64,000 nt of DNA from Raillietiella orientalis (taxonomy: Eukaryota). Of the stretch, positions 5,601 through 61,330 are shown one piece after another. The stretch covers positions 1,674,001 through 1,738,000 of the forward strand of contig JAYWIR010000002.1 of NCBI GenBank assembly GCA_036172245.1, given 5' to 3'. A program made the translations under genes and the position numbers. The notes below the pieces were generated by a model that did not search any database, had not been told where the DNA came from, and saw only the letters and a list, made by a program, of their open reading frames with translations. Positions within the stretch are counted from its first letter, which is position 1. Each line of letters begins with the position of its first letter.

Positions 5601-8600
5601 ATCATGGTGACAATTTTGGTTCTGTTTTTACCATCGGATACAGGATTAAAGCAGTGACGTGAACAAGAACGCTGGCGTGGTCCTTGTTATTCGATGTTCA
5701 GAAGTGTGGGGGCCAGAGCTCTTTCAAACAGCAGCAAGACGCCGATAAAGAAGCCAGAACAAAGATAACTCTAGCCCCAGCAGCGGAAGAAAAAAAAAAC
5801 CAAAAAAAAATTCGGAAAACCTTGCTATGAGAGGGAACTGCTGGAAGCGGGCAGCTTGTTTGATCAGTTCCAAGAAACCCTCATAGATACAAGCTAGTTG
5901 TTCCTGGAGTTGCGCGTCAGAGTTGCTGAGGTGTTTAAGAGAAGGTGTTTGTCAAACTGGAACTAGGAGCAGCATCCTGTTCTCTTAGTCACAATCCGGG
6001 AACGTAAGAAAAGATACGAACGAAACATTGCGGATCGGTTAGATAAAGAGAAGCATGGCAAGCGGATGGGTCTAACATTTCTGACAGAGCTCTCGAAAAC
6101 TGCGATATGAATGTACCGCTTTAAAGAGATTCTAGGAGCAGAGAATAAGAGTTACCAATGAAGAGGGAAGACCCTGATGGGACGATTCTTGCACTCACTG
6201 CAGATCTCGCGCTTCCGTTGCAGTCTGCATGGTGTCGAGGAGAGATGGGCAGCATTGACTGAAAAAAGTAACAAACGCGCTCTTCCATCATGGCGCTCCG
6301 TGCGAAACGGTTGGTATTCGGAATGCTCCTATCTTGAAGGGAAAGTTGCCCTAAATTACTCTTGAGGAATCCCGGGTCCTTAATGCCTTCTGGCTCGCCG
6401 CACTAGCTGAGAGCAATTGGCTGTCGTTTATAATTCGTGTGCTGGAAACACGTTGAATGCTTCACTCTGAAGAAGCGGAGCACTCTTTCAGCAGCCAAAA
6501 ATTGCAAAGCCTAACTGCAGAGAATGCGATGAAGAATCTTGCAAGTTTTACAGGAAATCTTGCATTACAGAACGGCGGATGAATTTTACTAATGCAGATG
6601 CATTCAGTGCATCCACAAAGAAAATGGTTCCTTCAGCGAAAATCTCGCCTAGAGGTCTGACATGCATTTCTGAAGAGGGATTCCGAAGATTGCTTTTTCA
6701 CGGAATATTCAGAGAAAAAGATGGAAAGCAATTGGATCCACCTTTTCTCAAGAGGTTTTAATGAAGATATCCATACATAGCAGAAGAAGAAAAAAAAAAT
6801 GTGGAAGCGCGCTTTCCGAAAGACCGAACTGAGATAAACGTTCAAGAAGAAGCATTTTCCTCCCTCATCCCGAATACTAGGAAGGAGAAAGCTACTGAAC
6901 TTGCATTTATGTGCATTTGTGCTTTTTGAGGAAAAAAAACTCCCAAGAAGCCATGGGACAGAATAAAGACATTTTTCGAAGTGCAATTCTTTTCTTTGGT
7001 CGGAAAGTCGGCAAATTTTTTTTTTTTTTTTAATTTTCGGAAGCTGTGTACAGTAGCTAACAGGAGAGGTGATGTAAACAAGCCGAGTCGATGCCCAGTC
7101 CCCAAGGCTCTTGAATTTCCAACTTCAATCATTTCTCATTCAGATGAGAAATTTTCTCTCTCTTTTTCTCAATGTTTGTTGAAAACGATAATCACATCCA
7201 ATCGCTGGCAAATTCGATACATATGGCACTGGCGGAAGGTGATTACGTGAGGAGCCATTTGAAAAATAGGACGAACCCAATAACGTTTTGGAACTTCGTC
7301 TTCTGTAAACAGGTGTCTTCCTCCATTGCTGTACAAGTATAGCTTTGAACTGGAGAGTTGACCTCTTTCTGCCTAAAGAAATCAGAGCAAAAAACGATCA
7401 TTATTTCAGATTGGAATTCATGTCAAAACTGGTTACAACATTTTGAGTTTTCTTCTACAGAACGCAGACCGCATTCCTAAAATACAAGAGATCATAGATA
7501 AAAATTCATTTTTTTTTTCCCATCAGTTTTTGATGTTCCTGATTTCACATGAGTTCTTTTCCGAGCTCTGCGCAACGCGTACCGTCCACTATGTACCTTA
7601 AGGCAGAGAAACTGAGTGCTTCATATCCTCAGATCGAGGCAGCACTCGAAAGTCACGGCGCTCCACCGAGGTATCCTCCACGCTGATTGGCTGCTGTGAG
7701 TTTGTTGGTGACGTTTGCATGATTAGACAGGAGACCGTGAAAGCGAAAAGGAAATCAATCCTGAGGATTGCCGACAGAGTAACGTAATTTGCTCTGTTCA
7801 ATCATTCGGATGATCAGACCGATAACAGCTCTCGCTTTCAGGAGCACAAATGATTGGAGAATGAGGAGCCACAGAACAGTCCCATCGCTTAGAAACTCTG
7901 AACTCTAGTGACTTCATTGGAGAGTGTATTTTTAGGGAAGCTGAACGAGGAAATGATCACATGTTTGCTAAGAGAGATCCTTCGTCTTCATCATCGACTC
8001 GTAATGCCTCAGAGCCGAAGATCGCACCAGGAGGTGGTGAACTCAGGTTTCTTTGGCTTTCGTTGTGAATCGGGAAGGGATTTGCTTAAGAAGTTGCATA
8101 CTCACTGTCGGAACCATGGTCTATTCTGAGCCCCTTGATGCCGAATCCTAGCTGGCGTATTCTTGAAAAGGACGTCGATCTTTCTGTTGAATACATCCTG
8201 ATGATCCGAAACCCCGCAGGATTAATTGAAGGGGTAACTTCCTCAACGTTAGGCAGAAAAGAGCCCAGGGAGATCAGATCAGATAGCTGTGTCGGACAAT
8301 CAATCGACTCGTCGAGACAGCCACTCTGCAAATTCTGTCAGCCATGTCCCACGTTCCCATCGTGAAACCAGCTTGAGGGCACGCCCATTCCCTTGGAACA
8401 TGGCGTCACACTGCTGTGGTAGCCTCAATCGATCTGATGCATCTACACGCAAGGTTCCAGTCGCGGTCTCTTCCACATAAGAGAGGGGCATGGGCACATG
8501 ATCACGCTTAGGCATGCTCACAAGTTCACCTTTGCACTCGCCATCGAGCTCTCATAGAAAGGAGTTAATTCGCAGCTTCCTGCCCGCACGATGCAATGCT

Positions 8601-9344
8601 CGCTGCTCCATCAAAAACCACCAGTCCTCATCCCGAAACCACATTGCCTTTCCGTACATCGTCTACCGCACATACAGGCAGAACCGGGTCAGTTCAGTCT
8701 GTCAGTTCGCGACGCCTGAACGTTCTGAGCGTTTCATGTGCGTGCAGTTCGACAGACAACAACGAGAGGCCGTGTGGCTGCACGATGGGGGGTGGCAAGG
8801 GAGGTGATCTGCTGGAAAAATCCCCTGATCAGCTCCAACTGGGCATTGGATCCTTCCTGGTTTTCCAGCCTTCAGGGTACACCTGTTGGCACGCGCTGTT
8901 CGTGCCAGGTTGCGTCATGCCATGCATCGCTGCTCCCATTGGCACCACGTCGATGCGATTATTTGGCATTCGTATGCACTATTTGTGCGTGTAAGTGTTT
9001 GCGGGCATTGTGAGAGATTGTATTCACGTTAGGGACTTGCGCTCCCGTTTTTTTTTCGAACTATTCAAGTACAAGTTCGTGTTCGAGTACTCCTTAAAGT
9101 GTACACGAGTCGCGGTATGGATGTAACCCGAATTTCCACTTTAAGGATGGAAAGCCAGAGTCGGCCACTCAGTTAAGTTTCTAATGGGATGATATTTTCC
9201 TGCATGGATGAAACTAGGAGTATGAACTAATATGGAGGGAGAAGGGGGAAGGGAATGCAGAACGAAGGCACTTAACTCAGGTTTCATGAATGCATAATCC
9301 TTTTATTTTTAGAAAAGTTATGATCTGAATTCGGAGGCTCGAGT

Positions 9345-9650
9345 TATCCCACCTCCCACCATCACGAAAAAATTCGAAATCATTAACGAAACAGAACACC
9401 CAATTTTCATCTCCGCGATCCCTTCCACCTCCCTACTACCCCCTTTAACTAACCATCCTAACATTCTCGATACCTACAAATAACTGTTAATACCATTCCA
9501 AACATTACCAACACTTCGACCATATTATCCCACATTGAAAATCGTATTCACTCTATCAGATAATCCCCTCCTATATTAACACCGTAAAAAGGGAAATCCC
9601 CATCATACACCTGTTGATATCATACTAACACTATAAACTATCCTTAAAAA
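9345..9650 (-). mobile_element. Possible L1/Tx1-like ORF1 remnant with extreme strand bias (see findings)
   Basis: Minus strand reads 'MVEVLVMFGMVLTVICRYREC*DG*LKG' and, in another frame, 'IAEMKIG....ISNFFVMVG', resembling LINE ORF1 RRM-like segments (L..FG.V..I.R; M....IP.F..G). The plus strand has only ~18 G in ~305 nt. Confidence 0.35.
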
Positions 9651-12089
9651 TGTAAAGCGCTGCTCCACTCAGGTCTTTTTAATCTTTTGCAACACCACAT
9701 CTAACGATCCAGATAGGGTTGGTAAGTTTGCACGTCTTTCACGATGGCAGGGGTTGCTGAAAATAAGGCTCTTGTGAAGGCTTTTGATCGCCTTCTGAGT
9801 TTGATTAGAGTTCAAGATTAGAGTCTGCTTGCAGTAAAGTCGCAGAATGGGTACTGGAGGGATGAACAGCAGGTGGACAAGGGAAACGTTCGAGAGACTT
9901 AATTGATGGGACACATTCAACGAGTGATGTCCGGATGGCAATCGCCTTGGGTACAGAAGGTTTGCTCACTTAGTAGTATGTAATCTTCTTCGCCATCCAG
10001 CATTCTGATGAAAACGCCGTTCGTAATGGAGTTGCATCCTGTTTCAGACCGGGAAAAATGGGGACTCACGTGGGAATTCGTTTCCGAGTTATAAGTTGAT
10101 CTGACCCGCTGGAGATGCGTATCCCCTTTTGCACTCGCGTGAGCTAGCGTAGTCCATCCCCAAGGATGTCCTTGGTATTAAAAACATTGGAAATCGATTC
10201 CACCTTTGTTTTCTGGAGTGAAGCAACCGGGGAGGGAATTTACAAACTGGGGTTCAACCTCTGCTCGGAGGCGAGTATTGAAAGCCGCAAGTTCAACGAG
10301 GAGGAGAGATGTTGCGCGTGCTCTTCTCCAGGGAATCCTGGAACATGGGAGAGTTTGGTGGATATTCGGTATCCAGTGCTACGTAGCTCACGAAGCTACG
10401 ATCGGAAAGAACAGCACCTTCAGAAGTTACGATCGGTGCTTCCAAGAGGAATGTGACGAACAAGAAACAGTTCATTTTTTGATGAACGAATGGGGAGAAA
10501 CGGATTAAGTTCGTAGAAGCCATCTTATCAATGATTTATCGATTCCTAAGACGCATTTATGTCTCCCTAGATTATTTTGGAACCTACAATCACTACGGGT
10601 AGCCATTTGCTCATGGAGTGTGAGAAACAAAGTTACTGGGAGATGTAAAAAAGAGAACCAAGGACAATAAGAAGAACAGAACTAGGAAGAGATCACAAGT
10701 TGAGAGAGAAGAATTCGGTAAGACAGCTAGTAGTGAGAGAGAAGGATAGGGAGAACAGTGAATTCAGGTTGTGAGGTGTCTGACATGGAGTGGGGAGGCT
10801 GTCGGCGTGTTTATGATAAGACTGAGCATAGGACCATCTTTTCGGGGAGGGAGGTTATATTCTGTGCAGTTACCATCACCCAGTTCATCCCCACTAACAC
10901 TGCAGTTGCCATAGGCTACACAACCCAAGCATCCTAACTCTTTCGTATGCTATGTAGATACAGTTGATTTCGGTGTCATCAACATAAATCCTAAGGCGCA
11001 AGGAAAGGTTAGGTGGCCACAGCGAGAGAAATCTTGGGAGACGTCCGCATCTCAAGATCGCACGTGTTGGTCGAGGGCAAAAGGCGAACTGCTACAGATC
11101 CCTGCTTCCCGAATAGGAATCTCCCTCCACGGCTCGAGCCCTAATCAGAGGGAGGTGGCCGATCGAGGATGCCGCTCGGGAAAGCCTCCCTGCTAGTCGG
11201 ATCCGAGTTTCAGAGCGAGCCACAGCCCACCCACGGGCGGTGTCTGGCCTTGCATCCGGATTGGGGGCATTCGAAACCCCTCCGAACGATCCCGTTGCAC
11301 AGCGGAAACCGGCAACTTTCCCATGGTGACCAAGAGGGTTCGCCTGCTAGAGAGGCGGTGGTTCCTGACGCTCCTCGTTCTTTCTCGTAACGCAACCAAT
11401 AAAATTTGCCGGTCGTTCGCGCGCCCGACACCCGGCGACCGCTGCCTCCGAACCTGGAATGCTTCCCATCCACTCTGCGAGTGCCACTACATGGCGGGGT
11501 CGGTTCTCGAGTGCCTCCCCCCGAGCTCACGCAGCTTCCCCCATTTTCTGAAAAATGCGACCTCCCTCCTCTCACGTTCACGAGAAAGCTGTCTCTCTCA
11601 TGATCCCAAGTGAACGAGCGCACTTTGCGCGGCGATCAGGAAAGGCAGGGGGGGGGGGGAGGAAGGGGGAACATGCGAACGAGGAGAGGACGCGTCCTCG
11701 CGCGAGGGCAAAATGTGCCAGTTTGGTACGGAGCGGCTGCTTACGTTGCTGCTGGGTTTTGCTTGGCCGTTCCCTCGCCTCTCCCACATTCCAAGGCGGC
11801 AGCGCTTCCAGAATCTCCGCGTCCCTTTGTTGCCGCTCGCTTTTTGTCGTCGACGATCACCTCCCTCTCCCTCCCCCTTCCGAGAAAAAAAGGGGGGAAG
11901 AGGTCTGCGGTGAACTCGACAAAGCAACACGGACCGCTTCCGGTTGCAGCACTCGGACTCTTCGGGACAAAAATCAGGGGAGAAGAGGTAGGGGGAGGAA
12001 GAGCCTCAAACCCCTGCTTTCGAGCCAGAGTCCAGCCTTCTGATTCAAATGAACCCCGTGTCATCTCGCCGCCGACCTTCTTCCGTGGC

Positions 12090-16639: not shown

Positions 16640-17771
16640 TTAGCCGGTGAGTCTTCGGTGGTGCGTGCGCGCCCCCTCAGCGCCCTCTTGCTGCTCTTCC
16701 GGAGAAGTGGTGCTGCTGGTGGTGCGAGGCGTTGCCTTCGCCACCGCCACCGCTACTGCTGCCGCCGGCGTCGAGTCGTATGCGCGCACCTCGCGGTGAA
16801 TTCCGCACACACAACCCAACGGGCGCTTCTGCGTGGGGTGCGATGGGTTCCGCCGAGTGCGTTCCTCACGTTCCTCGCTGTGTGTCGCCCCCCACGTGCT
16901 GCTGTTGCTCCGTGGTAAGTCTTTGTGCCACCAAGAGTGGGGGTGATGATGGGGAGAGAGTGAGGAGGAGAAAGGCAGAGATCGCCGTGCGACGGTCGTT
17001 CCATTGGCATTTTCTTTCGAGGGTAGACCTTCGAGAATGAAGTGGTGCCTTCGCAAAGGCATCACCGCTTCTTCCAGGGGTTTTGTGTCGTAGAGCGCGC
17101 ACCCGCCCTCCCCCTGCGTCTGCATTCTAACACCCTCCCCCCTGCAGGCTTGGCTGTCGGAAGGAAGCTCCACGGAGATTTCCATCCGATCCTAAGGGGG
17201 GAGGGGATCACAGGAGGTGTGGGGATTTCCGGGAGCCTCCACGCCTCGTGTCTTCCTCTACCGAAGAGAGGAATGGCAAGGACGCCTCCATCCCGTCCGG
17301 TATTTCCTGTTGCTGCCGTATCCAAGGTCGGAAGACCCGTTGCTCGCTTCTGCCAGAGAGAATGCTATTCTCGCTCTCCTCCCCCCTCCCTCTTCGTCCT
17401 TGCGATTCGGGATTTCCTTTCTTGGTCCCGGCATTCCCCCTCCGGATGGCCCCATCAGCTCCGGGTGGGTTCCCGCGGATGAGCTGTGGAGACTCCCCAT
17501 CCCCTCTCCACCTTGTGGCTCTTCCTCCCCTCCCGTAGACGGAGGGAGAGGAGGGTAGGTCGAGGGGAAGAGAGAGAGAAGAAGGCGACCGGCGAATCGC
17601 TCTTGGGCGCCCGATGATCGTAGGTTGGGGAAGCCGTTCCTCGAGCGAGCGCGCCAGGTCAATCCGGAGCGGAAGCGCCGCCTCCACGTTGCGCCAAGCG
17701 GGGCGAAGTCCATGAACTTTGGAGCTGCAGAACACCTCCGGGGCTTTGCGATGTTTAAACCGTGACTCCAA
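16640..17771 (-). CDS. Hypothetical low-complexity protein, possible two-exon gene divergent from Sur
   Basis: ORFs 17771-17208 and 17185-16640 join in phase 0 through a 70-nt GT-AG intron (17261-17192, TCG|gtagag...cccttag|GAT). No recognisable domain; it may be a GC-rich chance ORF. Confidence 0.2.
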
Positions 17772-17829
17772 CGGAAAAGAAGGACCCCAAGCACTCGTTC
17801 AGAGCTCTCTCCTCCCTCTCTCTCATTCT

Positions 17830-17915
17830 GTTTTCTTTCTTACTTCCTCTCTCTCTGTCTCTCTCCCTCTCTCTCTCTGTTTTCTTTCTTACTTCCTCTC
17901 TCTGTGTCTCTTTCT
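17830..17915. repeat. (CT)n-rich microsatellite with a short internal duplication
   Basis: 'ttttctttcttacttcctctctct' occurs twice (~17831 and ~17880) within CT tracts upstream of Sur. Confidence 0.8.
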
Positions 17916-18301
17916 CTTGCGCGCAAACCTGCGTTCTTTTTTTTTTTCCTTCTGTTACTCCCCGTGACGTCACGGCCGGAGACGTTTGGTGCGTGCGCTT
18001 TCCGTCCGGACGCGTCGAAATTATTCCCCGGGCACGGCGGATCTTATCAGCGCTCATCCGAACAAAGGAGTCCCATGAAGGCACCGCGATAAGTGGTCGG
18101 TTCGTAGGGTGCCTCCAGCCGGGAAGGGAGGAAAAAAAAGTGGATCGTTCCTCGCCCCCGCCTCGCCGGCGGACATCCCGACGTCCGTGCCTCCCGAACG
18201 AGTTGACGAGTGCCCCGGAGCTTCCTCCTCCTCCTCCTGCGTCTCCCCGACGACACCCGATCCCCTCTCCAGACCACGGCCGCCAATGTTCCAGGAAAGT
18301 A

Positions 18302-21300
18302 ATGGGTGGCAACGCCCCGCCGGTTCCCATGGTGGTCCTGTCTAGCACGTGCAACAACCTCTCCAGGACGACTCCGAACGCCACGGGAGCAGGGACCACG
18401 GCGCCCTTCTTCTCCCTGTCGAACCCCTGCTCGTTCGAGCTGCTCGTCCTTGCCCAGAATGTGACCTTCCTCTGCTGCGCCTGCGCCTGCATCGCGTACT
18501 TCCGCCTCGCCCGCTCCTCTGGACGCTTCCCCCCGCTTCCATCCCTTCCCCTGACCCCTCCAGCGGCTCACAGGAACGACCGCTTCGGAACTAGCAGGAA
18601 CGTGCTGAGGTGTCTCCTCCTGTTCTTCCTATCCCTGGTCAGCGTCTGGGAGCTCGTGGACGCGGCCTTCGGCGAGTACGTGTCCGAGGAGTTCCACCCG
18701 GCGGTCGTCGCTTCCCCCGCGGCGTGCACCCTCGCGGTCGCCGCCCACGCCTGCCTGTACCACTACCTGGACCAGAAACGCTCCGTCCACGGCCTCTGCC
18801 TGCCCCTCTCCCACTGGACCAGCTCGGTCGTCCTGAGATCAATAAAAATTTCCATGCTCGTCGCCCTCCGCCTCAGCTTCCAGAACACCAGGATGCTGTG
18901 GAGCCTGCTGGCTCTCCTCGCCTGCCTCTCCCTCGCGGCGCTGGACGTCTTCTTCCTCGTTCAGGTAGAGAGGGGTCTGGGAAAGGGGGAAAAGGGGGGA
19001 GGCGAGGGGTGGGCAGGTGGCACCCTGCAAAAAAAAAAAAACCGTCTGGATCACGTGCAGAGGCTCCGCGGGAAGGGAACTTCCAACGGCGACTCCCTGC
19101 TAGAGGCGGAGCAGCAGCAGAACTACTACTACCGCTTCCACGAAGCCAGCATTCTGTCCAAGTGCCTCTTTACCTGGCTACTGCCGCTCCTGTTCCTCAG
19201 CATCAAGCAGAAGATCGGGTTCGAAAACGTCTCGACGTCGTCTCCCAAAGAGAAGTCGGAGATCCATTTCTCCAGATACCAGAAGACGTTCGCTTGGAAC
19301 CACGTGAGTACCGAGCGGAGGGTGGATCACGCGCCGCACAGCTCCCAGAATTCCCCCTCACCCCTTTCCCTGTTTCCATTCCGTGTGCCGCCGTCGTCTC
19401 TTTCCACGCGCGGAGCGCGCACGACTCGGCTTCTCCGTCCACCCTCGCGGGGACCCTTGCTCTATCCACGAATGCATCCGAGCGAACTTCTCTCCTGGAG
19501 GGAGTGGTTCTCAGTTCTCAGTCTCTTCTCAGTTCTCCACCAACACCTTTCCTGCCCTTGCTTCTTCCATCCGGCTGGCTCCAGATGGAGGGGAGGAACT
19601 CACAGGAAGCGTCCAGGGAGGGGCTCTCACACTCTTGTCCCGGTAATCCCTTTAAAGACTCCCGTGACGTCCGCGAGCTCTCCCAGGGAAATGGTGGGAT
19701 TCGATCGCTGGCGAAAGACTGCGAGGCGACCGCCGCTCAAGCGCCCGTCAAGCAGGGTTCCCGCTCCTTAATGAGGGATTCTTCCATGACTACCCGGCGG
19801 CTTGCTCCTTGCTTTCAGGTGGAAGCGCTGTGGAATTTGCTCTCGAAGGAAAACGGGGAATCAGGAGGAGACAGGGAGGAGACCTTCCCCTTCCCTGCTT
19901 CCAAAGAGCAACTTGGAAGAAGAGGAGAAGGAGGACTCGCGCAGTAGCGCTTTGGCATCCTGTGGTCAGAGACTCCTTGGAGACTCCCTGCAGAATCTGG
20001 AACCACGATTGGGAAGCCCACTGGTCCTTCGACGCCTTGCGCAGCGATAGGACTCCATGCTTTCTGGTTCCACTCATCGTGGCGTTAGAAAAAAAAAAAA
20101 AAAACGGAGGCCAAGACGCTGAGGATACTCCTAAAGACTTGAACAGCGATCGCGAAAAAAGACCTTCTGGAACCGATTCTTCATTCATGGTACCTTCGTA
20201 TTTTCGGAAAAATTCCCAGAACGCGAGGAATTCGACGGGACCCTTGCGAGACACCCGGGAAGCGAGGGAGAAAGAAGAAGGAAAGGGGATCAGCTTTCCA
20301 GTCACCGTCCTTGCAAAAACGGCTCTGGCGGATTCGTGGATCGCAGCACCATTCCGATCTGGAGGTTTATAGCAGCAGCAGCAAGAACAGCCGCGCCAGT
20401 AGCCAATCTAAACGACTGTCAGGTCGGTGAAGAGCCAGAAGACCGAGGGGAGCTCGTCGGCTACAGACCGCCGGCGTCGGTGCCTTCGGAACCTGAAGGC
20501 ACAGGTTTAAGCGGACATCTAGCAAAGAGCAGACTCCCATCCCTCGCATGCCAGCGGGAAATGCAGGGCGCGAGACGAGGAAGGGAGAGGAGGAAACGGA
20601 CGCTCCCTTCGCCCCATTTTCCAGAGATCCGCGTCTCCTGTGGGCAAAAAAGGGTGAAGCTGCCGGTCGAGGATCCGATGAGACTTAGGGCAGATGGTGA
20701 CGCTATGAAGAGCCAACGGAGGAACGGGAGCGAACGACCTACCGAAAGAGAAAACTCGGGAATGGGACCACCCTGGAAGAGGAAGCGATGGGATCTCACG
20801 TAGCAGTTCCGATTGCTCAAGCCACGCCGCACGGAAGATGTCCCGGTTCTCGGGAGGGACAAAAGGAGTCCTAGGAAGCAGAAGAAACAACTGGAAAGAA
20901 CAACACGTCTGGTACTTATCATCCAGAGAGGAACTCTTAGCAAGCAGCCCCTAGAGATGAAAAGGATGAAAACATCTCCTCCCACTCGAAAGCGGGAACT
21001 CTGCCGATCGATCGCTGCCCGTCCTGTAGGGGAACTTCGGAGTCCCTGTCCGAACTCGCTAGCTCCCGTTCCCCTGATGAAAACCGTGACCTCGTCCAGC
21101 AGGAGGAAAATGACCTTGGATCGTTCTTGTCCTGAGAAAGGTGGCGAGGGGTATTCTGGAACTCCCGAGGATCTCCGGTATCCCTCGGGCTAGAAATCCA
21201 GGTCGATCCGCGACGTCCATGCAGAGACGCGAACCGAAAAGGAGAAACCCACCGTCCGTTCGCGATACGGGGGCAGGAGACAGAGATCCCGAGAAGGAGG

Positions 21301-24300
21301 CTACGGATGGCGCCATCAGCATTCTCCAGTGACTCACTGAAAGCCAGGAAGGCATGAGGCCGACCTTGGCACCGGTGTAAGGACTGACCGAGAGGTGCGA
21401 ATCGTCGACCTCTGCTCCGGCGTCCTGCAGCCTTCCGCACCTCACCTGCTAGGAAGAGCAGCAGCATCTGTGAGGAAAAGTTCCGCCGTCGGGGTGTTCT
21501 ACCTTCTTTTTCTTTTTTTCTCCGTGGAGCCATTCTTCGTGTCGGGGAAAGACGGGACGGAGTCGCCTTCCCACTTGGGAACACGCGCTGCTCCGGGACG
21601 TTTCTGGCCGACCTTTGTAGCACCCCGCCTCTTGGACTCCGCAGTCGCTGATCCTTTCTCCGGAGGGAAGGGTTTCGTCCACCTCTCTCGAAAGACCTCG
21701 TCTGGGACGCGCTCCGCGGGAGAGTCGCTGCCTCCTCGATCGGTGGATAGGCTGGACGCTGCTGTAACTTCCTCGGTTTACTCTTCCTGCGCGTGCTCCA
21801 GCGACCCGCCCCACAAACACGGGAAGGGAGGGTGGAATTTCGCTATTCCGGTTTCTTTGGAGACTAGGCGCGGTACTCCGGGAAAAGCACTTTCCTCCTG
21901 GGAACACATTTCCGCTGTAGGGAGAAGAAAGGAGGTGTAGGCAGGGCTCCTGCTGCACATAGACCTTTTTTCCTCCTCCCCCCTCCTTCTTTCTTACGCT
22001 CTTACAGAGCGTTCCGAAACGTGGAGCTTCCCTTTCGACTCGCTGCGAGGCATCCTTGTGCAACTCGGTCGCGTTTGCATGCGCTGAGCCTCTTCAGACT
22101 GCTTGCAAAGGGGAATGACTGGTACCTTCATTTCTAGGGAGGAGGAAGGGGCCCTACTCCCATGCTGTTCTGGATACACTGCCTGCGGTTCGGAGGAAAG
22201 ATATGGATTCTCAGTGGGCTGCTTCGGCTGATGGCAGACTTCACGGGACTCGCCGGCCCGCTGGCAGTCAAGCAGATCATCGACTTCGTGGAGAGATTCC
22301 AAGAGAAGAGCAACGACACGAATGTCGCTGAGGTATGGCGCCCCGCTCCTCCCAACTTCCGTCTCTCAGACGACCGTTGGTTGCAGAAACCCGACCTGTA
22401 CATGCCGACGTTCTCAGACCTCTTCCGCAACGGTTTCGTTCTTTGCATCATCCTGCTGTTCCTCAGTTTGATACAAAGCAGCTGCTCCCAGAGCTCCTCG
22501 TTCTTAGGTGTGACGCTGGGAGTGCGCATGCGAGCCATGTTGCAGCTGGCACTGTACAGGAAGGTGCTGCTGTCTCCGAGGTGTTCCAGGTCGAACCAGG
22601 AGGCTTACATCCTGACACTCATCTCCGAGGACGTGATCAACGTCGCGAACTTCCTGGGCCAGTGCCATTTGCTCTGGACCATCCCCCTCAAGGTAGAAGC
22701 AGGTAACGACGCGGGGTCCGGGTGACTCACTTCCATCCATTGAAGCTCAGCTTCATCCTCTCCCTGCTATACTACCAGCTCGGGTACTGCGGTATCGTGG
22801 CGACCGTCACCTCAGTGGCCATCCTCCTCCCCGTGCAGCTGTGGCTGGGATTCCGGATGTCGAAGAACCTGAAGCTGCTGATGGTACGCGGCGGGCGGGA
22901 GGGGCGCCCGAGCGCACCCCTTGGCGGGATGCCCGTACCTCCTCAGGAAGCCAAGGACGTCCGCCTGCAGTCGTCCAACGACATGTTGCAGTCGATACGC
23001 CTGCTGAAGATTATGAGTTGGGAGCACCTGGCCGTTGCGAAGGTGAACCTCCAGAGGAGTGAGGAGCTCAAAGTTCTGTACTGGGATTCCGTGTACCTAA
23101 CCGTTTGCGGTGAGCGATCGGGAAACAGGAGGGGCAAGGATAGACGAGGACCTGCGAGGGTCCTCAACGGTTTCCCCCGAGCGACTTCTTCCTCTTCTTT
23201 TCTTGCAGCCTGCCTCACGCAGACCACGGCCATCCTGATCACCTTGCTGAGCTTCACCCTCCTAACGGAAGTGGCCCGCCGGCCTCTCTTCGTCGCCGAG
23301 GTCTTCGCGAGCCTCGCCCTTTTCAACCAACTCACTATCCCCCTTTACCTGCTCCCCATAAGCATAAAGGATTTCATCATCGCCTGTCGCAGCGTGAAGA
23401 GGATCTGCAGCTTCCTTGGCAGTCCCGAAATCATGGGGATCCGGTCGGAAAGCACGGATTCGGTGAAACCCGTGAGTTCATCTGTCCTTCTCTCCACCAC
23501 CCCTAACCCCCTATTTCCCCTTTTTCGACCTCCCTTCCGAGTCCTCACGTTTCCCGATCGCTTTTCCTACCTCCTCATTCCCCCTTAGCCGATGAACAGG
23601 AGATCGCAGAAGATCTTCTCCACTCCTCCGCTCAACACCCTGGAAGAGGAAGACGAAACGAACGAGAGAAAGCAGGACTGGCTCGTGAAGATCGAGTCAG
23701 CCTCCTTCAGCTGGGACCCGCACGCGAAGGAACCGACCCTGTCGGACATCAGTTTGCAGCTCTCGGAAGGTTCGGAATGCACGAGTTCGGGTTAGGAGGG
23801 AAAGATGAGAGGAGGAGGAGGGGAGGAATACGGCGGGGAACAAGAAGTGGGGTGGGATAGGGTGGGAAGAGAGCGCGCGCGCGCGCGGATCCTCGTCACC
23901 AAGGGCGCTCGTTCCAGGAAAACTGACGATCGTGCTGGGAAACGTCGGAAGCGGGAAGACCTCCCTACTGTCGGCGTTCCTGGGAGAAATCAGCATCGTG
24001 GCCGGTCGAATCCACTGGGCAAAGTAAAAGCGGCGCGACCTTCGCGAGCTTTTGACCTAATTCGGGATGGGCGGGGCGGGGCGAAAAGTGATGTCCCCTT
24101 CGCCTTGGTATCCCAAGAGCCGTGGCTCCTCCATGCGTCGCTGAAGGAAAACATCACCTTCGGGAACTCCTACAGCTCCAAGCGCTACCAGACCGTGATC
24201 ACAGCCTGCGCCCTGGAGGAGGACATCGCCATCTTGGGAGGAGACCACGTCGAGATCGGCGACGGAGGCGTCAACCTGAGCGGCGGCCAAAAGCAGCGCA

Positions 24301-27300
24301 TCTCCCTCGCAAGGGCTCTCTACTCAGCTGCCGACATTCTCCTACTGGTGAGAGAAGGTGGAGGGAGAGGAGGCAAAAAAGGATGAGAGTGGGACGGACT
24401 CCGCTTCAGGACGACCCTCTTTCCGCCTTGGACGCACAGATCGGACTCCACATTTTCCAGGAAGCTATCCAGAAGCTCCTCCTGCACCGCCGCAAGACGG
24501 TCGTCCTCGTCACTCACCGCCTGCAGTTTATCCTGCATGCGCAGAAGGTACTGCTAGAGTCGCCATCTTCCCCCTCCTCCTCCTGGTCGACCTGTCGTCG
24601 TCTCATCCCGCAATGCTCCCGACGCAGATCGTCATCATGGAGGCCGGCCGCATCGCGTTCCAGGGATCTCCCGCGGACATAGAAAGGGAAGCGCCCTATA
24701 CGTGGGAGGCATGGAAGCGGCAGATCTCCCGTGAGAAGAAGGAACTCTTCGGGGCGATCGAAAGCCGGACGCAAGCCGAGCGCCACCGGCTAAAGAAGCT
24801 CATCGAAAGGACGTCGTCCGGAGGAAGCGGTCCCCAGCGCGCCGCGGAACCCATGATCGGGACCTCACCCTCCGAGGTTGGAGTTTGAAAAAGGGGGGGA
24901 TCCTGTCTGCCACTACCAGCTTCTGGCCTCATGCAGTGTTCCGAGGAGATAGCCATATGTCCTTGGAGGAACCAGCTCTTCTCACAGCGCTCTAGGAAGA
25001 CGAGCAGCAGCCAGGGAAGCTATGAGGACAGCAGTAATTCGAAAAAGTGCAAGAAGCCGAGCATCAAGAGGATCCGGAACCCGTCAGCGGACAGCTGTGA
25101 GTGCCCCGGGGCGGCTTTCCTCCCCTCCCTCCCCCACAAACCACTTATGCTTTAGCAGTGTCTTCCACATCTCCCGGAATCATTTCTCTTGCTGATGATC
25201 CCGCCTCTGCCGATGAGGTCTTCCCAACCTTTCTCAGTTCGGCTTCCAGGACCGTCCAGAACTTTCCAAAGCCTCCACTGCTGAAAAAGATTTCCGCCAT
25301 CTCGAACATGAGCTACACAACCATCAAGGAAACAGAAGGTGCCGTCTCGATGCGCTCTATCCCTTTCCCTTCCCTATCCCTCACAAACGCACGCATCACC
25401 GCCACCGCCGCCATCACCACCACTACCACCAACAGCCTCCTTCATCTGAGAAGGCGGGGGAGTAGAAAAGAAAAAGAAAAACTCTTTTGCAGATCAGCTA
25501 GAGCTTGGCGAAGTGGCCAAGTTCCTAGCCGAAGAGCGCAAGAAAAGCCGCGGAACGCTATCCCTTTGCCTGTACTACGTGAAAGCGTGCGACCCGCGCT
25601 GGGTCATCGTCTACGTTCTTCTGGCGTTTGGCTCCCAGGTCTGCAGGATCTCTTCGGATTTCCAACTCCGGAGCTGGACGGAAGGTTACTCCAAGGATAA
25701 GGAGGCGTCGAGCCTGGACAACGAGACCGTAAGTGCCCAGAACCGGGCGCCGAAGTTCAGGGAGAACTTCTCTTTCCTTGTTTTCCCTGCAGCTTTACGG
25801 ATACCTGCTCGTGTACGTCAGCCTCTCCCTGACCTTCGTGGTACTCACCCTGGCGACCAACTTCATGGGTCAGCACGCGGGTTCGAACTCGAAGAAATGC
25901 TTGCACTACAACCTCGTCAACAACCTCATACATTACAAGATGCACTTTTTTGAGAGCACCTCGCTAGGATGCATCCAGAACTGCTTGTCTTCTGACATCT
26001 CCGCCGTGGATAAGGTGGGTGGAACCACGCATGATGATGCCTGGGAGTGTATTTTCTTTCCTCCTTTTTCACTCTCCATCTTTTTGCCCTCTTCTCTTTT
26101 CCTCAGAAACTTCCATCCGAGTTCACCAAGTTCACCTTCTTCGCCTTCTTGTGCCTCTCCGCGATCATTGTCAACGCCGTGATCACCCCTTGGTTCATCG
26201 TGGCAGCGATCAGCCTCCTCGCCGCCTTCATCTCCTTGCAGCGTTTCTACCGCCCCATGGCGAAGGAGCTGCAGAGGCTGGAGGCCTTGAGTCGCTCCCC
26301 CATCAATTCCCTGTTCGCTCAAACCATGAGCGGTGTGTCTGCCATACGGGCGAGTGGCCAGAAGCGTCGCTTCTTGAAGCGCATGATGGACATTGTGGAC
26401 CTGCACAACAACGTGTCTCTGCTGCTGGAAGCGAGCGATCGTTGGCTAGGAGTAGCCTTGGTGACGACGTCCCTCATTCGATTCAACCTTTTTTGAGGTG
26501 GCTCTCTCTTTTTTTTTTTTTGCACATTGCAGGATTTCCTGGGAGGCATCGTGACTTGCATCGCCACCCTGATGGCTTTGTTCATGTCCATCTACAGACC
26601 CGACAAAGTAGACGCCGGTTTAGTCGGTCTCAGTCTCAATTACAGTCTCCTCCTTCCTATGTACCTGATTTGGGTCATGAGGACGTGGAACAACTGCCAG
26701 CATTTCCTACACGCCGTGGAGCACCTGCGCCAGTTTTCCGAATTTCCGAAGGAAGAGGAATTCAGCGCCCAGCAACAAAAGGGCCAGCAGAGGAGCTCGC
26801 TGCTGATACACCACGTGGACAACTGGCCCAAGCGCGGCCGCATAGAGTTCAGGAAGCTGTCCGCCTATTACGACGATCCCTCGAAGCTGGCGCTGAACTC
26901 GATCACCCTGTGCGTCCGTTCCGGTGAAAAAGTGGCCCTCTGCGGACGTTCCGGAAGCGGAAAGAGCAGCCTGCTCTTCGCGCTCCTGAGGCTCATCACC
27001 TTCGAGAGAGGCTTGATCTCCATTGACGGGATCGACATCAGCTCTGTGCCACTGCACGTGTTGCGATCGAGGTTGGCCACAGTACCGCAGGATCCGTACC
27101 TCTTCTCAGGTTCCATCCGGCACAACCTGGATCCGGAGCGGAATTTCGAGGAAGACAAGCTCTGGGCATGCCTGGAGGAAGTGAAGATCGCTTCTCTTGT
27201 CCGTCGCTTCCCTGCAGCCCTCGGTGAGTCCAGAATCTTCTCACGGAAGCGGTTGGCTGACGAGTCCCTACAAATGCCCAGACACGGAGATGTCTTCCTG

Positions 27301-27768
27301 CGATTCCCTCATGAGCGTCGGGCACAAGCAACTCTTGTGCTTGGCTCGGTGCATCCTGCGTGATTCCAAGGTGACTAGTGGTGGCGCTGGCCTCCTTCCG
27401 CTGGGAACTGTACCTTTCCGCCAGATCATCCTTTTGGACGAGGCCACGAGCTCCGTGGATCACGAGACCGAGAACATAATCAACCACATCATCGCCGACC
27501 TTTTCAAGGAGAAGACGGTGATCAACATCACGGTGAGGGATGGCGCGGTTTGCAGCGTTGCGGTGGCAACATCCCTTTCCCTTCTCCCTCTCAGCACCGC
27601 ATCCTTGGGATCATGCATTACGACCGCGTGCTCGTCATGGAGCAGGGGCAAATCGTCGAAGACTCTTCTCCTAAAATCCTCCTGTGCCAACCGGATTCCA
27701 TATTCCAGCAAATGTACCAGGCCGTCATCAGGAGATCCCCGACGGATTTGGAAGATGGGCATCCTTGA
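18302..27768 (+). CDS. Sur: Sulfonylurea receptor-like ABC transporter (ABCC8/ABCC9/Sur type): TMD0-L0-TMD1-NBD1-TMD2-NBD2, 21 exons
   Basis: Exons: 18302-18964, 19061-19303, 22138-22332, 22387-22692, 22746-22883, 22947-23109, 23209-23471, 23589-23769, 23918-24023, 24089-24347, 24410-24547, 24628-24876, 24937-25096, 25156-25338, 25493-25728, 25793-26014, 26107-26460, 26533-27223, 27282-27370, 27425-27532, 27595-27768; all GT-AG and in frame. SUR-type TMD0 ('NPCSFELLVLAQNVTFL', 'RNVLRCLLLF', 'CLYHYLD') and L0 ('SILSKCLFTWLLPL'). NBD1 has GNVGSGKT, LSGGQKQR and LLLDD; NBD2 has GRSGSGKS, SVGHKQ and ILLDEAT. The start could instead be the ATG at 18329. Confidence 0.92.
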
Positions 27769-42417: not shown

Positions 42418-42840
42418 TCATAGCTGTTCTTCCGGATTTGATGCCAACTGCTTATGCCGTATCATATTCGACATTATACTATCTAAAGTGACCGTCTTTT
42501 TGCGCGCGCTGCCTTTAAGTTCGGAGAGGGAAGGATTGCGACGGGCGAGAAACTTAAGTTGGGACTGCTCCTCGTCAAAATCGAAATCCCTTAAAACATT
42601 GATAATGGGACCATCGGTCTTCTCCACGACGCTGGAGGACAGAAATCGTTCCACGGGAGAAGGGGGGCGGCGACCCGGGCACCGCCATTCCAAATCAAGA
42701 ATGCCATCTTTCTGCAGCTTTTCATAGAGGATTATTATGTCGGGGATAGGAATTTGCCATTCTTCGTCAGGGCTTTTGGTTATTCCTTCCCCATAATACT
42801 TCTCGTCATCAGAGCATTCGACTTCCCAGTGATCACTCAT
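42418..42840 (-). CDS. PAGR1: PAXIP1-associated glutamate-rich protein 1 (PA1), 140 aa, single coding exon
   Basis: ATG at 42840. Family motifs: 'WEVECSDDE', 'IIILYEKLQKDGILDLEWRCPGRRPPSP', 'FDFDEE' and C-terminal 'LDSIMSNMIRHKQL'. A tttcag acceptor lies 9 nt upstream of the ATG. Confidence 0.92.
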   Translation of the reverse strand: MSDHWEVECSDDEKYYGEGITKSPDEEWQIPIPDIIILYEKLQKDGILDLEWRCPGRRPPSPVERFLSSSVVEKTDGPIINVLRDFDFDEEQSQLKFLARRNPSLSELKGSARKKTVTLDSIMSNMIRHKQLASNPEEQL

Positions 42841-43899
42841 AATTAGGAACTGAAACCAAAAAAGAACGTTTGAACACAGGAGTGAACAACAGGGGCAGAG
42901 CCATAAAAAAGAACACACACACACGATTACTTAATGCTATCTCAACTAACCCGTGCAACGATGAAAAAAAATGCTTTCTAATCAAATGTTTTTTTAAATA
43001 ATTTACAAAATGCTCAGGAAAACTCGTGAAATGAATCGTTTGTTACATAGTAAAAAACAAAACAAAAAAAACAAAATGGTGTCGTTTTTTTTTTGCTTTT
43101 TGTTTTCATGAAGGAAATGCGCGATAAGATTGCATCATGAAAGTTTATTACGATAGAGTGAACTTTGCCACAGCTACGAAAGTGTGTGCCCTCGTGCAAG
43201 CAAGACAAAGAAATTCCCTGAATGATGAAGAAACAATCAGATGTTAAGGAAGCATTTTCTCCAAATCCTTCTGGGAGAAATCCAAGCACCAAAAGATAAT
43301 CACGTGCTGCTGGTGTTTTGAATACGTTAAAAAAAAAAAGCAAGACATACCTCAAGTTAATACAAACTTTGCACCAAATGCATAAAGTAAATACAAAATA
43401 ACCAATAATGAACAAATCAGGCAATAATTGAATGCAACAAATGTAATCCTATATTACTGAAGTATCAATACTGTAGGTAACATAAAAAATTCAAATGACT
43501 GTTATGCTGTTCCCCACCCACCCAAAAAAAAAACGTTACAAGGAAAATGCAATTAAAACTGCCAATTTCATGCCAATTTCATTGTGACAGCAATGAGCAA
43601 CTTTCTTCTGGAGATCTTTAATTTGCATATTTCTGATAAAGTCCAACACAAAGGTTGAAATAATAGCGTGACCCACAAACCAACTAACATGTTCATATTA
43701 ATTTTCGGTTTCACTGTTCCATATAAGAAAAACTGAGGAAAAATTCCGCAACCTTAGATGTTTTCCTTTACAAAGAAACGTTGCGATTCAGAATTTTTGC
43801 ATACAATATTTCGGTTGGTACGAACAGAATACAACTTTTGGCCTCTAACGCTACAATGGGAATACTAGAAAGTTACAGCTAGTAAACTATGTAAATTTA

Positions 43900-44065
43900 A
43901 GTTTCAAAAAATTAATACATTTATGTATATACGCATATATGCGTGTATAAAAAGTATATAAAATTTACATTAAAATAAATGGAAAATGAAAATTTAAATA
44001 CAAAAATATATATATATATATAATATAAAAATACTAAAAATGGGAATATAAAAAATAACATATGC
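43900..44065. repeat. Very AT-rich tract with (TA)n microsatellite
   Basis: Almost purely A/T sequence, including atatatatatatata at ~44007-44021. Confidence 0.8.
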
Positions 44066-45670
44066 CAAATCGGTGAAATTACGTGTTGAATTCTAATGCT
44101 TAAAAAGAAAATAATTGCTACAGATTTCTCGACTTTTGTGATTCATAACAAAACATCGAAAGGATTGCAGTAAGGATTTTTAATGGTTTTAGTTCGCAGA
44201 CTGGAGAGTTATCATTGGGGATTATGATTTTTGCAGCCTTACAGGTTACACTGAATGCTAGAGGTTTATAGCATCAGGTTTGCAAAACTATCTAGTTGAC
44301 AATTATTGGATAATATTAGTATTTTTTTTTTATTATTTATCCCAGTTTACTGAACATTAATTACAAATGCTACACCCATTCTCACAAAGCAATTGTAAAA
44401 CAAAAGCATAATTCTCCAATCAGTCCCTTTACATCACAGAAAATTCATATCCCCAAATTTCAGGAACTGCTATAGCAACAAAAACAAAATATGCCACAAT
44501 TAGATTTTTAACAATAATTTTAAACAAACAAAAATGATCTTAATTTGCAAATCTGCATCACAAATCCTTTGAGATATGCAATTATTTGGTAATTTATAAT
44601 CTCTTTCATTTTAGCAATCATTAGATTGAAAAAAAGAAAAGAATGAATCACCACTTCTGTTGTAAACATTGCAACATTTGAGTCGCAATAAAATAAGTTG
44701 TGCAATAAATCAAAATATTCATGCAGGCAGACTGCTAAACCTGTTGATACATCCATCATGATCACATGAAACCACTGAAGAAAAAGATACCTTGTTCCCA
44801 CACAACAAAATGCATGACAATGCATGAAATTCCAATGTATTTCACCAAACATAAAATGATGCTGTTTACGCACATGATATCATAGGATACCACAAGGGTA
44901 TTCCAATTTTGCACACATGCAACCACACTAATAGTGCAAATAATGATTATTAATAATTGTTATTTGCATGTGTTGAATTTTGACACAAAAGACTAATATT
45001 TAATATTGATAGCATTAATATTTATCAGAGCATGATGTCTGAAGAATCCATTTTTCCTTAGAAGGTGCTTTTTTGTTTTTTTTCGAGGTTACTCAAATAC
45101 ATGTAGCCACTCAAAAAAGTAGCATGAATAATGCACCAATAATGCATTAACTAACTTCGGCAATTACATGAATCATGGCAATTTTTTCATCAAAAACGGC
45201 AATGCAAGAATGTTTGGTGCAAGCTATTTCATTGTCAATCAATTTAATCTCGACATATACTGTGCAAGTGAATATAAAAAACAGGTCAATATTGCACTAC
45301 ATGCATGTAATGAATTGACATAAGACTTACATATCTTTAAATTTTACTCATTTATCTGATAAGCAACCAATAATTATCTAAGACACTGATTTTTTAGATT
45401 TCATTAAAAACTCCATGTTTCAAATAATAAGCAATCATTAGCTACATGCTTAGAAATTCAATTTTCATTTCTTGTTTATTAAAACTTGTTATTCAAATAG
45501 ATGTTTATCAAGCTCTATATGCAAAATTACTTACTTACGAACAAAACAAAAAAACATGCAATTTGACTTGAGTATACATGTAAAATAAATCAATGATAAT
45601 ATCTTTTTATTAGAGTTCATGAAGTAGCCCTTAGCACATTCAAGAGGAAAATCTGGGAGTTCAGACAAGC

Positions 45671-49482: not shown

Positions 49483-50251
49483 TTATATAAGTTTTACTTG
49501 TCCACTACTTATTAAAGGAGCAACAGAATGATATGACAATAAATGCTGAGATCCCTCTGTCAGTTCTACTTGCTGATGGTTATCAAGCAAGACATTTGTT
49601 GTTCCATGTCGGCATTGAGCAAATACATAACCATTTACACATGATGCTGTAAGTCCATGGATTTTATCAAGTGACTGCAATGGACGAGGCATATGCTGTA
49701 AAGCAAGAGCTTGGAAGTGAGCTTCTAAGTCTGCTTCATAACTGCTGATATTTTCTAAGTGGAAAAAAAATATTGATAAGCTACTTGCGAGCAAACTGCA
49801 CTTCAGCTGAACTCATTTTCTGAGGTGTTGGATTGGCCAAAAGAGCCTGATGAAGACGTTCTATTTTGTATAATCGACAACGCAAGTAATCATTGATTAC
49901 ATACTGAATGCGATCCATCTGTTCACCACATATGGTGTACTCAAAACAATATACCAACTACAAACCCACCTCCAATCTGTGCAATGACATTCTCAAATCA
50001 CCTTTCTGTAAATAAGTTAAATTATTTTCCATTTCTTGTAATTGTTCTAACATGCAATCTACTAAATCCAGCTGAACATCCAAAAGCTCGGGTGCAAACT
50101 TCTCATTAAGCCATGCCTAGCTCAATAAATGAATACAAACAGTGAATACCACCTACTGGAATACCTGATGCAGTCTCTGCAACACCTCCCCTGCTGTTAC
50201 AGTTTCTTCCTCTTCGCCAGATTGCTGGAATATGTCAGCATCTTCATCCAT
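49483..50251 (-). CDS. GINS4: DNA replication complex GINS subunit Sld5, 208 aa, 4 exons
   Basis: Exons 50251-50165, 50116-49970, 49918-49785 and 49741-49483 (introns 48, 51 and 43 nt). Motifs: 'LHQAWLNEKFAPELL', 'LEMDRIQYVINDYLRCRLYKIE', 'ALQHMP' and 'LTEGSQHLLSYHSVAPLISSGQVKLI'. Confidence 0.95.
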
Positions 50252-55535: not shown

Positions 55536-56239
55536 CTTTAATCAACCAAATCATACTTGTGAATTGAACATGTATTCTTCAAGCGCAAATATTAAAAACT
55601 TAATAAAATGTGTTTTCTGTATAAAGATGTTGTGAATGTTGCAAAATATTCCACTTCAAAGGCATATTACTAATGATTAAGTGAGACACAATATTTTTAT
55701 CTTTCCTTACAATGTTTACATTTGTTTACAGCTTTTCTGAAGAACATAACTTACTAAATGTAAGTATCTTCAATACAAATGAAAGGAAACTCGCATTTCA
55801 TTTTCAAGTCACGCGAACTTTCCAGAAACTCAAACCAATATTTTAAACATCGACTGCTTAGCAAATATAAACATAAATGCGCTAAGTGTTTGTAACAACC
55901 GCGAAACATCGATGCCAGGGATACCGAAACTAAGGTATAATGAACGATAAATTAGGATGCCAAAAAAAAGTTTAACGTTTGAAATTGAGGCCTAAAGCAA
56001 TATAATTTACATGACATTGGAAAAAGCAAATAATTAGAGAAGAGAGAACATTATGTAAATGTTTATAATACTGTTTAGCTATAAAAGTCACGAGTAGAAC
56101 ATGTTTACTTTTTCTTTACTTAACTTATTCACTGAATGAAGTATTTAATTCCACTGGAACAAAACAGAGACTCACAGAAAAACAAACAAGAAACTGTGAA
56201 GAATCATAAGAAAATGGTTTGTGAGGAATCACATTGGAA

Positions 56240-56660
56240 TGATACAACAATAATGGTTGAAAGCAGAATAATTAGAGTGTCTAAGATCCAATAATGTTGC
56301 TTACTGCTGATTCCACATCATAATTCTGCCTGACAATTTTCCCATTCTCGAGGAGGTAGTGCTGGTATAGAGCTCTTGATCTAGAAGGTCATTTTCGTTT
56401 GCGTTTGCAGGAAAGTTCGACAGTATATGCTTAGCTTCATTGGTGATGGTAAATTGCATTGGGGAAATGAAAACAATGAATAAGTAGTAGGAAATTTCTA
56501 GTGCTCTTTCGTGATAAGAAACTGGATCGCTCCTTATGATTATTGGTGTGGAAATAAAAAATAGAAATTGCCGATTGAAAGTCAGTTAAGAGGCATATAC
56601 TGGATCAATGGAAAAATTCAGAATTTACCTTAGTTTCGGAATCACCACTCACAACATCAT
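56240..56660 (+). mobile_element. Decayed LINE endonuclease fragment (RTE/CR1-like)
   Basis: 'VESRIIRV' and 'FIGDGKLHWGNENNE*VVGNF...YWCGNKK...IYWING' resemble APE motifs (SDRII; GDFNAxxG...VVGxFG...NG...TW). Confidence 0.35.
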
Positions 56661-60829: not shown

Positions 60830-61330
60830 AGACTTTGGGGAGATTGGAACCGCAGCTGCTCTTCCCAAGATCCTCCTCGCATGGTTGAGCCACCAGGTCA
60901 GAGCGCCGTCACTTTCTCGTGCGTGAGGAGCGCTGCCAGGGACTGACACCCCCACTTTCGCGCGACTGGCGTGAAAGCAATCCCTTCGGTTCTTCGCTAT
61001 GGGAGACGACCTCCTGCCGTCCCGCCAGCCAGGAAGTGCGGCTGCAAGGCCAGGTGCAGGGCGCGCAGAGCTTCCGGGACATTTTTTCCCGAGTCGCAAG
61101 AAACTCAGAGGGCTACCAACCTGCTCGGCGGATCATCGGCAGTCCAGCTCGTCTACGCGGTCACAGCTAGCGTGCCAAATCAGGTTATACTGCGATGGGC
61201 GGAGCTTTGGGGGTCTTCTCAATCTGTCCGAATAGTTCTATACCCCTCCCTCCCTAGCACACGACAACATTGTTCCATTCTCGGAATTTCCATGCAAGAA
61301 GCGACGTCGTCAATGGATCCGTTGAGAGTT
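60830..61330 (+). mobile_element. Decayed LINE zinc-knuckle/C-terminal fragment
   Basis: 'PTFARLA*KQSLRFFAMGDDL' (cf. P..RDLxW...L.TG.RL), followed by 'RKCGCKA' and 'QSFRDIFSR' (cf. CxxC...ESxxHIF). Confidence 0.4.

Follow-up and report, generated by a model that had tools for sequence, protein, structure and literature searches.

A block of DNA almost devoid of guanine lies at positions 9344-9651 of the window, by which we mean the whole 64,000-nucleotide (nt) stretch of Raillietiella orientalis contig JAYWIR010000002.1 analysed here. Over its 308 nt the plus strand is composed of A110 C98 G18 T82, which corresponds to a GC content of 38% and a GC skew of -0.69; pyrimidines account for 58% of its bases, with a C/(C+T) of 55%. 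The minus strand is G- and T-rich and C-poor (T36 G32 A26 C6 %, with C at 5.8%). The bounds given are those that fit best: the first internal G stands at 9366 and the last at 9616, so that the block begins and ends with G-free runs of 22 and 35 nt, respectively. The features of the block and of its immediate surroundings are as follows.

9366..9616, plus strand: span containing all 18 remaining G (9 in CpG, 4 in CAG or CTG, 3 in one AGGGA run and 2 in TTGA)
9151..9300, plus strand: left flank of opposite skew, with G at 30-31% and C at 13% (100-nt skew +0.40 and +0.41)
9751..9950, plus strand: right flank of opposite skew, with G at 29-34% and C at 13-17% (skew +0.33 to +0.43)
9327..9343, no strand assigned: left edge, GAATTC..CTCGAG, with normal G right up to 9343
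9304..9311, plus strand: TATA-like word TATTTTTA, picked out by eye, 33-40 nt upstream of the left edge
9652..9657, plus strand: right edge, where AAAAAT is followed by the splice-donor-like GTAAAG (by eye, a lead only)
Same edge, minus strand: reads ...TTTTTAAG and then G, acceptor-like (by eye, a lead only)

An earlier reading of these letters (the original prediction) had described 9345-9650 as a strand-specific hypermutation patch in which the plus strand had lost its G except at CpG. The loss itself is borne out by the base counts of this interval (A110 C98 T80 G18), as 77 and 87 G are found in the two 308-nt flanks, and so are the contexts of the surviving G, which is preceded by C in nine cases, by T in four, by A in three and by G in two. 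For so few G (18 or fewer in 308 nt), the binomial model gives a probability of 4.5e-16 with the G frequency of the window and of 3e-21 with that of the flanks. Along the sequence, G per 100 nt falls from 22-31 outside to 4-8 inside and returns to 21-29, the change taking place within ~50 nt at each edge. The depletion is real, local and sharp-edged. Measured over 100 nt, the skew inside the block runs from -0.57 to -0.81 (three overlapping intervals lie between -0.71 and -0.81), the first percentile of the window being -0.57, and its polarity switches at the right edge (9651/9700). Tandem Repeats Finder reported no tandem array in the block, nor did it show any autocorrelation period or enrichment of telomere-like k-mers. 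All six of its reading frames contain stops.

The block departs from its flanks in C as well as in G. It holds 98 C, about twice the 52 and 56 of the 308-nt flanks, and when set against the average flank it has 64 fewer G, 25 more A and 44 more C. Because of this doubled C, the block is a unit that was compositionally distinct before any conversion, and not flank-like DNA mutated in place. Any conversion and the identity of the block therefore share the same bounds, as would be expected if the block were an entire fragment that was edited, a native unit similar to an exon or an insert of foreign origin, but not if hypermutation had struck local sequence at random. The block is located in a compartment that retains CpG, and ~1.5-2 kb downstream of the block begins a long GC-rich region with many open reading frames (ORFs). 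The EcoRI and XhoI sites at the left edge were taken as chance occurrences, palindromic hexamers being about as frequent in this area as expected (seven in ~400 nt, counted by eye, versus ~6).

Within the window, no other 308-nt stretch is as G-poor or as GC-skewed. Of the 63,077 stretches of this length lying wholly outside the block, none had fewer than 24 G, the number reached at 44310, in a region of 30% GC. Asymmetry between strands was expressed as D = C/(C+T) - G/(G+A), which is expected to be near zero for strand-symmetric DNA. At 308 nt the block has a D of 0.40, ~5 standard deviations out (window mean 0.017, s.d. 0.075), and the next-best value is 0.26. With stretches of 150 nt, D is 0.47 in one half of the block and 0.36 in the other, and values of 0.36-0.38 are attained at three places elsewhere in the window. 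The block is thus less exceptional than the comparison with its flanks implies, and the trait that distinguishes it is very low G combined with high C. It also keeps its CpG, which in each of the remaining G-poor stretches number 0 to 2. A 200-nt scan returned only two other base-poor patches, both of low complexity.

17802-18017: CT-rich low-complexity tract
43855-44058: AT-rich simple-sequence tract

The plus strand between 43200 and 50200 carries several A+C-rich, G-poor stretches with almost no CpG, which lie antisense to the minus-strand ORFs found there. One example of such a native A-rich, G-poor stretch is 44349-44657 (plus strand, A130 C60 G27 T91). The pattern of this region is consistent with a sense-strand asymmetry of G>C and T>A together with decay of methylated sites.

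The exception made for CpG is weak, and the emphasis put on it in the original prediction was overstated. Nine of the 18 G do lie in CpG, but the other nine do not, and the statistical case varies with the test. With C at 32% of the strand, a C would precede about one in three of the surviving G by chance. Against this frequency the binomial P value is 0.086, as compared with 0.0045 against the window-wide frequency; Fisher's test for G versus A preceded by C gives P=0.053, and allowing CpG a rate of its own in the conversion model described below yields a likelihood-ratio statistic of 5.1-5.8 (1 degree of freedom (df), P ∼0.02). The observed/expected (o/e) ratio of CpG is ~1.57 in the block (hand calculation) versus 0.83-0.91 around it. 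Sparing of CpG is suggestive, not established.

The block was then described with Markov and hidden-Markov models trained on the rest of the window, in which each A was treated as a possible former G. The maximum-likelihood G-to-A rates were 0.80 outside CpG and 0.45-0.50 at CpG, with a gain of 37-47 nats over the native model. Under conversion, ~67 original G would be expected, ~49 of them outside CpG, versus the nine non-CpG G that remain. When 300 native segments were converted in simulation, the likelihood of the block placed it at their 11th percentile, so before conversion its sequence would have been an ordinary one for this window. When other replacements were fitted as controls, the gains over the native model were 33-44 nats for G-to-A, 28-30 for G-to-C and 22-34 for G-to-T, and with GC-rich or local backgrounds G-to-A led the two controls by 10-16 nats. 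In the same model the other G-poor stretches appear to have lost CpG preferentially (rate q at CpG 0.80-0.95 versus p elsewhere 0.35-0.55), and the block behaves in the reverse manner (q 0.45 versus p 0.80). G would have been lost equally after T and after G (modelled conversion 0.79-0.84). Rates that depend on the next base gave 2 x delta-LL (LL, log-likelihood) = 9.3 with 3 df and, read by the 5′ neighbour on the edited strand, correspond to modelled conversions of 0.94 for G, 0.80 for A, 0.69 for T and 0.40 for C, values that come from hidden states.

How specific this signal is was seen when 828 tiles of the window were scanned with the same statistic. Several AT-rich plus-strand tiles at 43-50 kb scored 21-29 nats, and the delta-LL scan for 'conversion-likeness' was dropped as a detector on this account. 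As the controls and the G-poor tiles score nearly as high as the block, most of the signal reflects no more than the shortage of G. That A specifically took the place of this G is moderately supported, and it is from these models that we infer both the replacement and its rates.

The explanation we rate highest, with a probability of roughly 40%, is in-vivo cytosine deamination of a discrete fragment on a single strand. It owes this position to the strand specificity of the pattern, the sharp bounds shared by block and conversion, the advantage of G-to-A over the controls and the relative retention of CpG. The starting point would have been a GC-rich fragment of ~0.3 kb, with a modelled original composition of about A20 C32 G22 T27 %. 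While its minus strand was single-stranded, C on that strand only would have been deaminated to U and read as T, in a one-off event of hyper-editing by an AID/APOBEC-like enzyme or another cytosine deaminase acting on single-stranded DNA (ssDNA). Such an event would have converted ~80% of the non-CpG C and half or fewer of the CpG C, the latter being partly protected if methylated, and the edited fragment would then have been fixed at 9344-9651, upstream of the GC-rich gene region. A slower variant of the same process may be envisaged, in which the G-rich strand was repeatedly exposed in an R-loop or a transcription bubble.

Clusters produced by APOBEC/AID editing resemble the block in being strand-specific, tightly clustered, confined to a single type of transition and sharp in extent. 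Among human polynucleotide cytidine deaminases, only A3A is efficient on 5-methylcytidine (PMC3688686), so most such enzymes would spare methylated CpG, and a poor activity on 5-methyl-C could explain the partial retention of CpG in the block. The differences are equally clear. Fixed germ-line DNA editing is known from vertebrate long terminal repeat (LTR) elements, at an average of 22.7 sites per element, and was absent from 19 invertebrate genomes (PMC4866542); the block would have ~50 modelled sites in 308 nt, has no retroelement identity, lacks a preference of the GG/GA type and belongs to a host that is probably not a vertebrate. Strand-specific G-to-A editing clusters are already a known class (PMC4866542), and the description of the process as an undescribed one was not warranted.

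Several observations weigh against one-strand deamination and have to be set beside the evidence in its favour. There is no progenitor copy in the window, so no substitution is directly observed. The edges of the block carry no target-site duplication (TSD) and no poly(A) (the latter judged by eye), and no terminal inverted repeat (TIR) was found. With the whole window as background, G-to-A leads G-to-C by only 3-6 nats, and by the same measure the native A-rich stretch at 44349-44657 reaches 29.3 nats. Statistically, the effect of CpG is no more than marginal (P values of 0.02-0.09). Allowing four rates according to the preceding base instead of one did not improve the model significantly (2 x delta-LL = 5.2, 3 df), and the modelled preference on the edited strand, GC > AC > TC > CC, would be unlike the well-known APOBEC3 preferences, although it rests on hidden states. 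A3G and A3A/B/F have dinucleotide preferences that differ from it. A modelled conversion of ~80% would also be far denser than the fixed germ-line editing so far reported (PMC4866542), and the genes of the window look, on sequence similarity, probably non-vertebrate. In its most demanding form, near-saturating (~80%), strand-specific editing of 0.3 kb of genomic, non-retroelement DNA in a single event by an ssDNA cytosine deaminase foreign to the vertebrate APOBEC setting, with methylated CpG spared and the product fixed in a non-vertebrate germ line, we consider the proposal unlikely.

The competitor that comes next is a native, evolved composition with no conversion at all, the block being an intrinsically A+C-rich and G-poor plus-strand unit, and this we regard as a possible explanation. 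Two candidate forms of it can be put forward: an untranslated, AUG-free and unstructured leader, or another non-coding exon, of a plus-strand transcript; or a short minus-strand transcription unit with an extreme form of the G>C and T>A sense asymmetry that minus-strand genes display between 43 and 50 kb. A native origin is favoured by the presence of further G-poor stretches in the window (24 G in 308 nt at 44310; three places with D of 0.36-0.38 at 150 nt), and the G deficit relative to the flanks is offset more by C (+44) than by A (+25), unlike a simple in-place transition. The contexts of the remaining G are close to what composition alone predicts (P=0.086). As a plus-strand RNA, the block is by a wide margin the least structured of the 414 tiles of 308 nt, with a minimum free energy of -16.2 kcal/mol versus -39.8 for the next-lowest structure and a mean of -83, and it contains no ATG where 4.7 are expected; yet both properties follow automatically from having few G. 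The GTAAAG after the right edge and the TATA-like word 33-40 nt before the left edge (both by eye) would suit the leader exon, the one reading on which the TATA-like word bears, but words of these kinds are frequent by chance. The flip of skew polarity at the right edge would suit a divergent promoter, where such a flip is said to have been described by Ginno and colleagues in 2012 and by Polak and Arndt in 2008. GC-skewed, R-loop-prone promoters and transcription-associated strand asymmetry offer a related likeness: the strand of the block that would be displaced is rich in G and poor in C, the polarity flip may correspond to theirs, and a GC-rich gene region follows downstream. Such promoters nevertheless come nowhere near a skew of -0.7 to -0.8 across 300 nt, and G clusters show no excess over composition (9 runs versus ~7 expected, hand count). 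Also difficult to reconcile with a native origin are the extreme skew of the three overlapping 100-nt intervals (-0.71 to -0.81 versus a first percentile of -0.57) and the CpG o/e of ~1.57 versus 0.83-0.91 nearby, all other G-poor stretches having lost their CpG. On the evidence of the window alone, one-strand deamination and a natively skewed sequence would look alike.

An in-vitro or assembly artefact, either converted DNA (bisulfite, enzymatic methyl sequencing (EM-seq) or non-denaturing bisulfite footprinting) or one poor read whose systematic G-to-A miscalls entered the consensus, appears distinctly unlikely. The block does have the size of a read or fragment (308 nt), sharp edges and a single occurrence in 64 kb, and retention of C at CpG with loss of the other C is a hallmark of bisulfite chemistry. 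One strand looks like a three-letter sequence, and CpG accounts for half of the C left on it, much as in methylated DNA after bisulfite or enzymatic conversion. Good bisulfite conversion, however, leaves ~1% unconverted, and the near-complete conversion of unmethylated C is not what the block displays: modelled conversion is ~0.8, with nine G remaining of ~49 and ~20% of the non-CpG sites unconverted, no more than roughly half of the modelled CpG have survived, and the flanks are unconverted. Normal sequence adjoins both edges, with G right up to 9343, and a converted read would share no k-mers with such flanks. A distant blastn search of 9300-9700 against plasmid and phage collections gave no match, which argues against lambda or plasmid spike-in controls and against a vector origin. 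A systematic Sanger error is a further candidate, since runs of G-to-A in one read are reported to enter low-coverage references (PMC2873906); that error is tied to AGA/AGG (PMC2873906), and in the block the loss of G is the same whether A, G or T precedes it. Our literature search on bisulfite contamination of assemblies found no directly relevant paper. A captured fragment of a strongly strand-skewed genome, for example a mitochondrial one (a NUMT-like, nuclear mitochondrial insert) whose G+T-rich strand is now the minus strand, is quite improbable. Heavy-strand-like mitochondrial DNA of several animal groups is G+T-rich and C-poor, and the minus strand (T36 G32 A26 C6 %) resembles it; undepleted CpG, sharp edges, the missing TSD and the single copy in the window would agree, as would one minus frame that has only one stop under genetic code tables 14 and 33. 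That low stop count is not significant, since ~3 TAG are expected by chance (hand calculation) and many frames and codes were tried. Moreover, no frame matches Pfam, phmmer found 0 matches among 1.84 billion proteins, and neither a mitochondrial tRNA (ARAGORN -mt) nor an Rfam match was detected, searches that fast-evolving rRNA or non-coding mitochondrial DNA would escape.

Still to be considered is the version given in the original prediction, in which the minus strand was likened to a segment of ORF1 of a long interspersed nuclear element (LINE), deaminated on its sense strand by an undescribed, CpG-sparing anti-transposon system based on a deaminase or akin to fungal repeat-induced point mutation (RIP). 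The compositional pattern agrees with it, and one minus frame, the most open, has 4 stops in 102 codons versus ~8.6 expected from composition (hand calculation), a difference that is not significant, as this is one of three frames considered. The further argument that reverting T to C repairs the stops proves nothing: T is the first letter of TAA, TAG and TGA alike, and any sequence would be repaired in this way. The likeness to LINE ORF1 did not survive the searches. When the six frames of 9300-9700 (stops as X) were compared with Pfam at E ≤ 10, nothing was returned except DUF3098 at E = 0.077, and the most open minus frame matched 0 proteins at E ≤ 0.001 in a phmmer search of 1.84 billion representatives. 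Codon periodicity is missing in the block (C by phase 33/31/34), whereas an ABC exon of equal length is significantly periodic. None of the 221 ORFs of at least 90 amino acids (aa) in the window (83 + 138 scanned) contains a reverse transcriptase (RT), ORF1, transposase, integrase or deaminase domain, and of the features of a retroelement (gag/ORF1, RT, LTR, poly(A), TSD) the block has none. The best conversion-tolerant inverted terminal match was equalled in 91 of 200 shuffles. There is no support for the block as a LINE or as any other transposon, and we hold a LINE-directed defence to be highly improbable.

No second copy of the block was detected in the window by a self-BLAST of 7500-11500, in which the self match stood alone, or by a G-to-A-collapsed BLAST of the block against both strands, which gave short, low-identity matches only. 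Exact 40-mers from the right flank and the block had 0 matches in metagenome and genome contigs, and a 38-nt pattern with R at each A had 0 matches in these and in viral contigs; as most of the material in such collections comes from prokaryotes, viruses or metagenomes, the two results carry little weight. Rfam and tRNA scans of the block returned nothing, and its RNA structure z-scores were -0.29 and +0.35. RIP itself also produces C-to-T transitions and can be strand-coordinated within one event. It needs duplicated sequence, prefers CpA and drives DNA AT-rich, with index thresholds of >0.89 and <1.03. The block, in contrast, has no duplicate within the 64 kb, a GC content of 38% and unremarkable indices (TpA/ApT = 30/34 = 0.88; (CpA+TpG)/(ApC+GpT) = 33/36 = 0.92), which lie at the borderline and are weaker than those of RIPed DNA; a bias from CpA to TpA is not seen, and the genes of the window look holozoan and not fungal. 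No directly relevant paper was found in our literature search on RIP-like hypermutation in metazoa.

The wider window has a mosaic composition. Its AT-rich blocks (GC 30-37%) have a CpG o/e of 0.17-0.44, with TpG and CpA in excess; such low values are found at 1-2000 and in four of the six 2-kb bins between 44 and 56 kb. In the GC-rich blocks (4001-44000 and 56001-64000, with GC up to 61%) the CpG o/e is 0.73-0.96. Judged from sequence, this mosaic looks like mosaic germ-line methylation of CpG. The window is eukaryotic, and the genes and domains recognized in it are listed below.

~22138-27360, plus strand: exons of an ABCC-type ABC transporter (closest named relatives 37-42% identical)
22138-22722, 25733-26179 and 26038-26493, plus strand: ABC_membrane (Pfam)
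23796-24383 and 26497-27360, plus strand: ABC_tran (Pfam)
42421-42930, minus strand: ORF with a PAXIP1_C (PA1) domain (matches are unnamed metagenome proteins)
49486-49812, minus strand: C-terminal exon of SLD5 (closest to human and Xenopus GINS4, ~40% identity by eye)

The SLD5 exon aligns more weakly with the fly protein and not at all with that of yeast. Together with the PA1 matches, this gives the impression that databases cover the organism poorly. Between 11200 and 21900, both strands are GC-rich (55-61%) and carry many long ORFs in more than one frame, up to 670 aa at 17759-19768. None of these long ORFs has a Pfam match, and they are probably a by-product of composition. A Ser/Thr-rich open frame of 492 aa at 53555-55030 (minus strand) belongs to no Pfam family; a weak lead (0.82) connects it with fragments of chordate growth-hormone receptors.

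At present the block is a well-defined anomaly and not a discovery, and its meaning depends on its origin. If it proved to be an artefact, it would flag an error in a public assembly. If it is native, it shows how far local strand asymmetry can go, and it would be a warning that a 'bisulfite-like' look can arise from composition alone, because the rare G of a C-rich strand often follows C. Should an un-edited progenitor exist, the block would be among the densest strand-specific editing footprints known to be fixed in a germ line, and it would stand in a lineage where fixed DNA editing is reported absent (PMC4866542). An edited block would then suggest that a deaminase attacks genomic ssDNA, and its remaining CpG would be a direct read-out of the sites that were methylated at the time.

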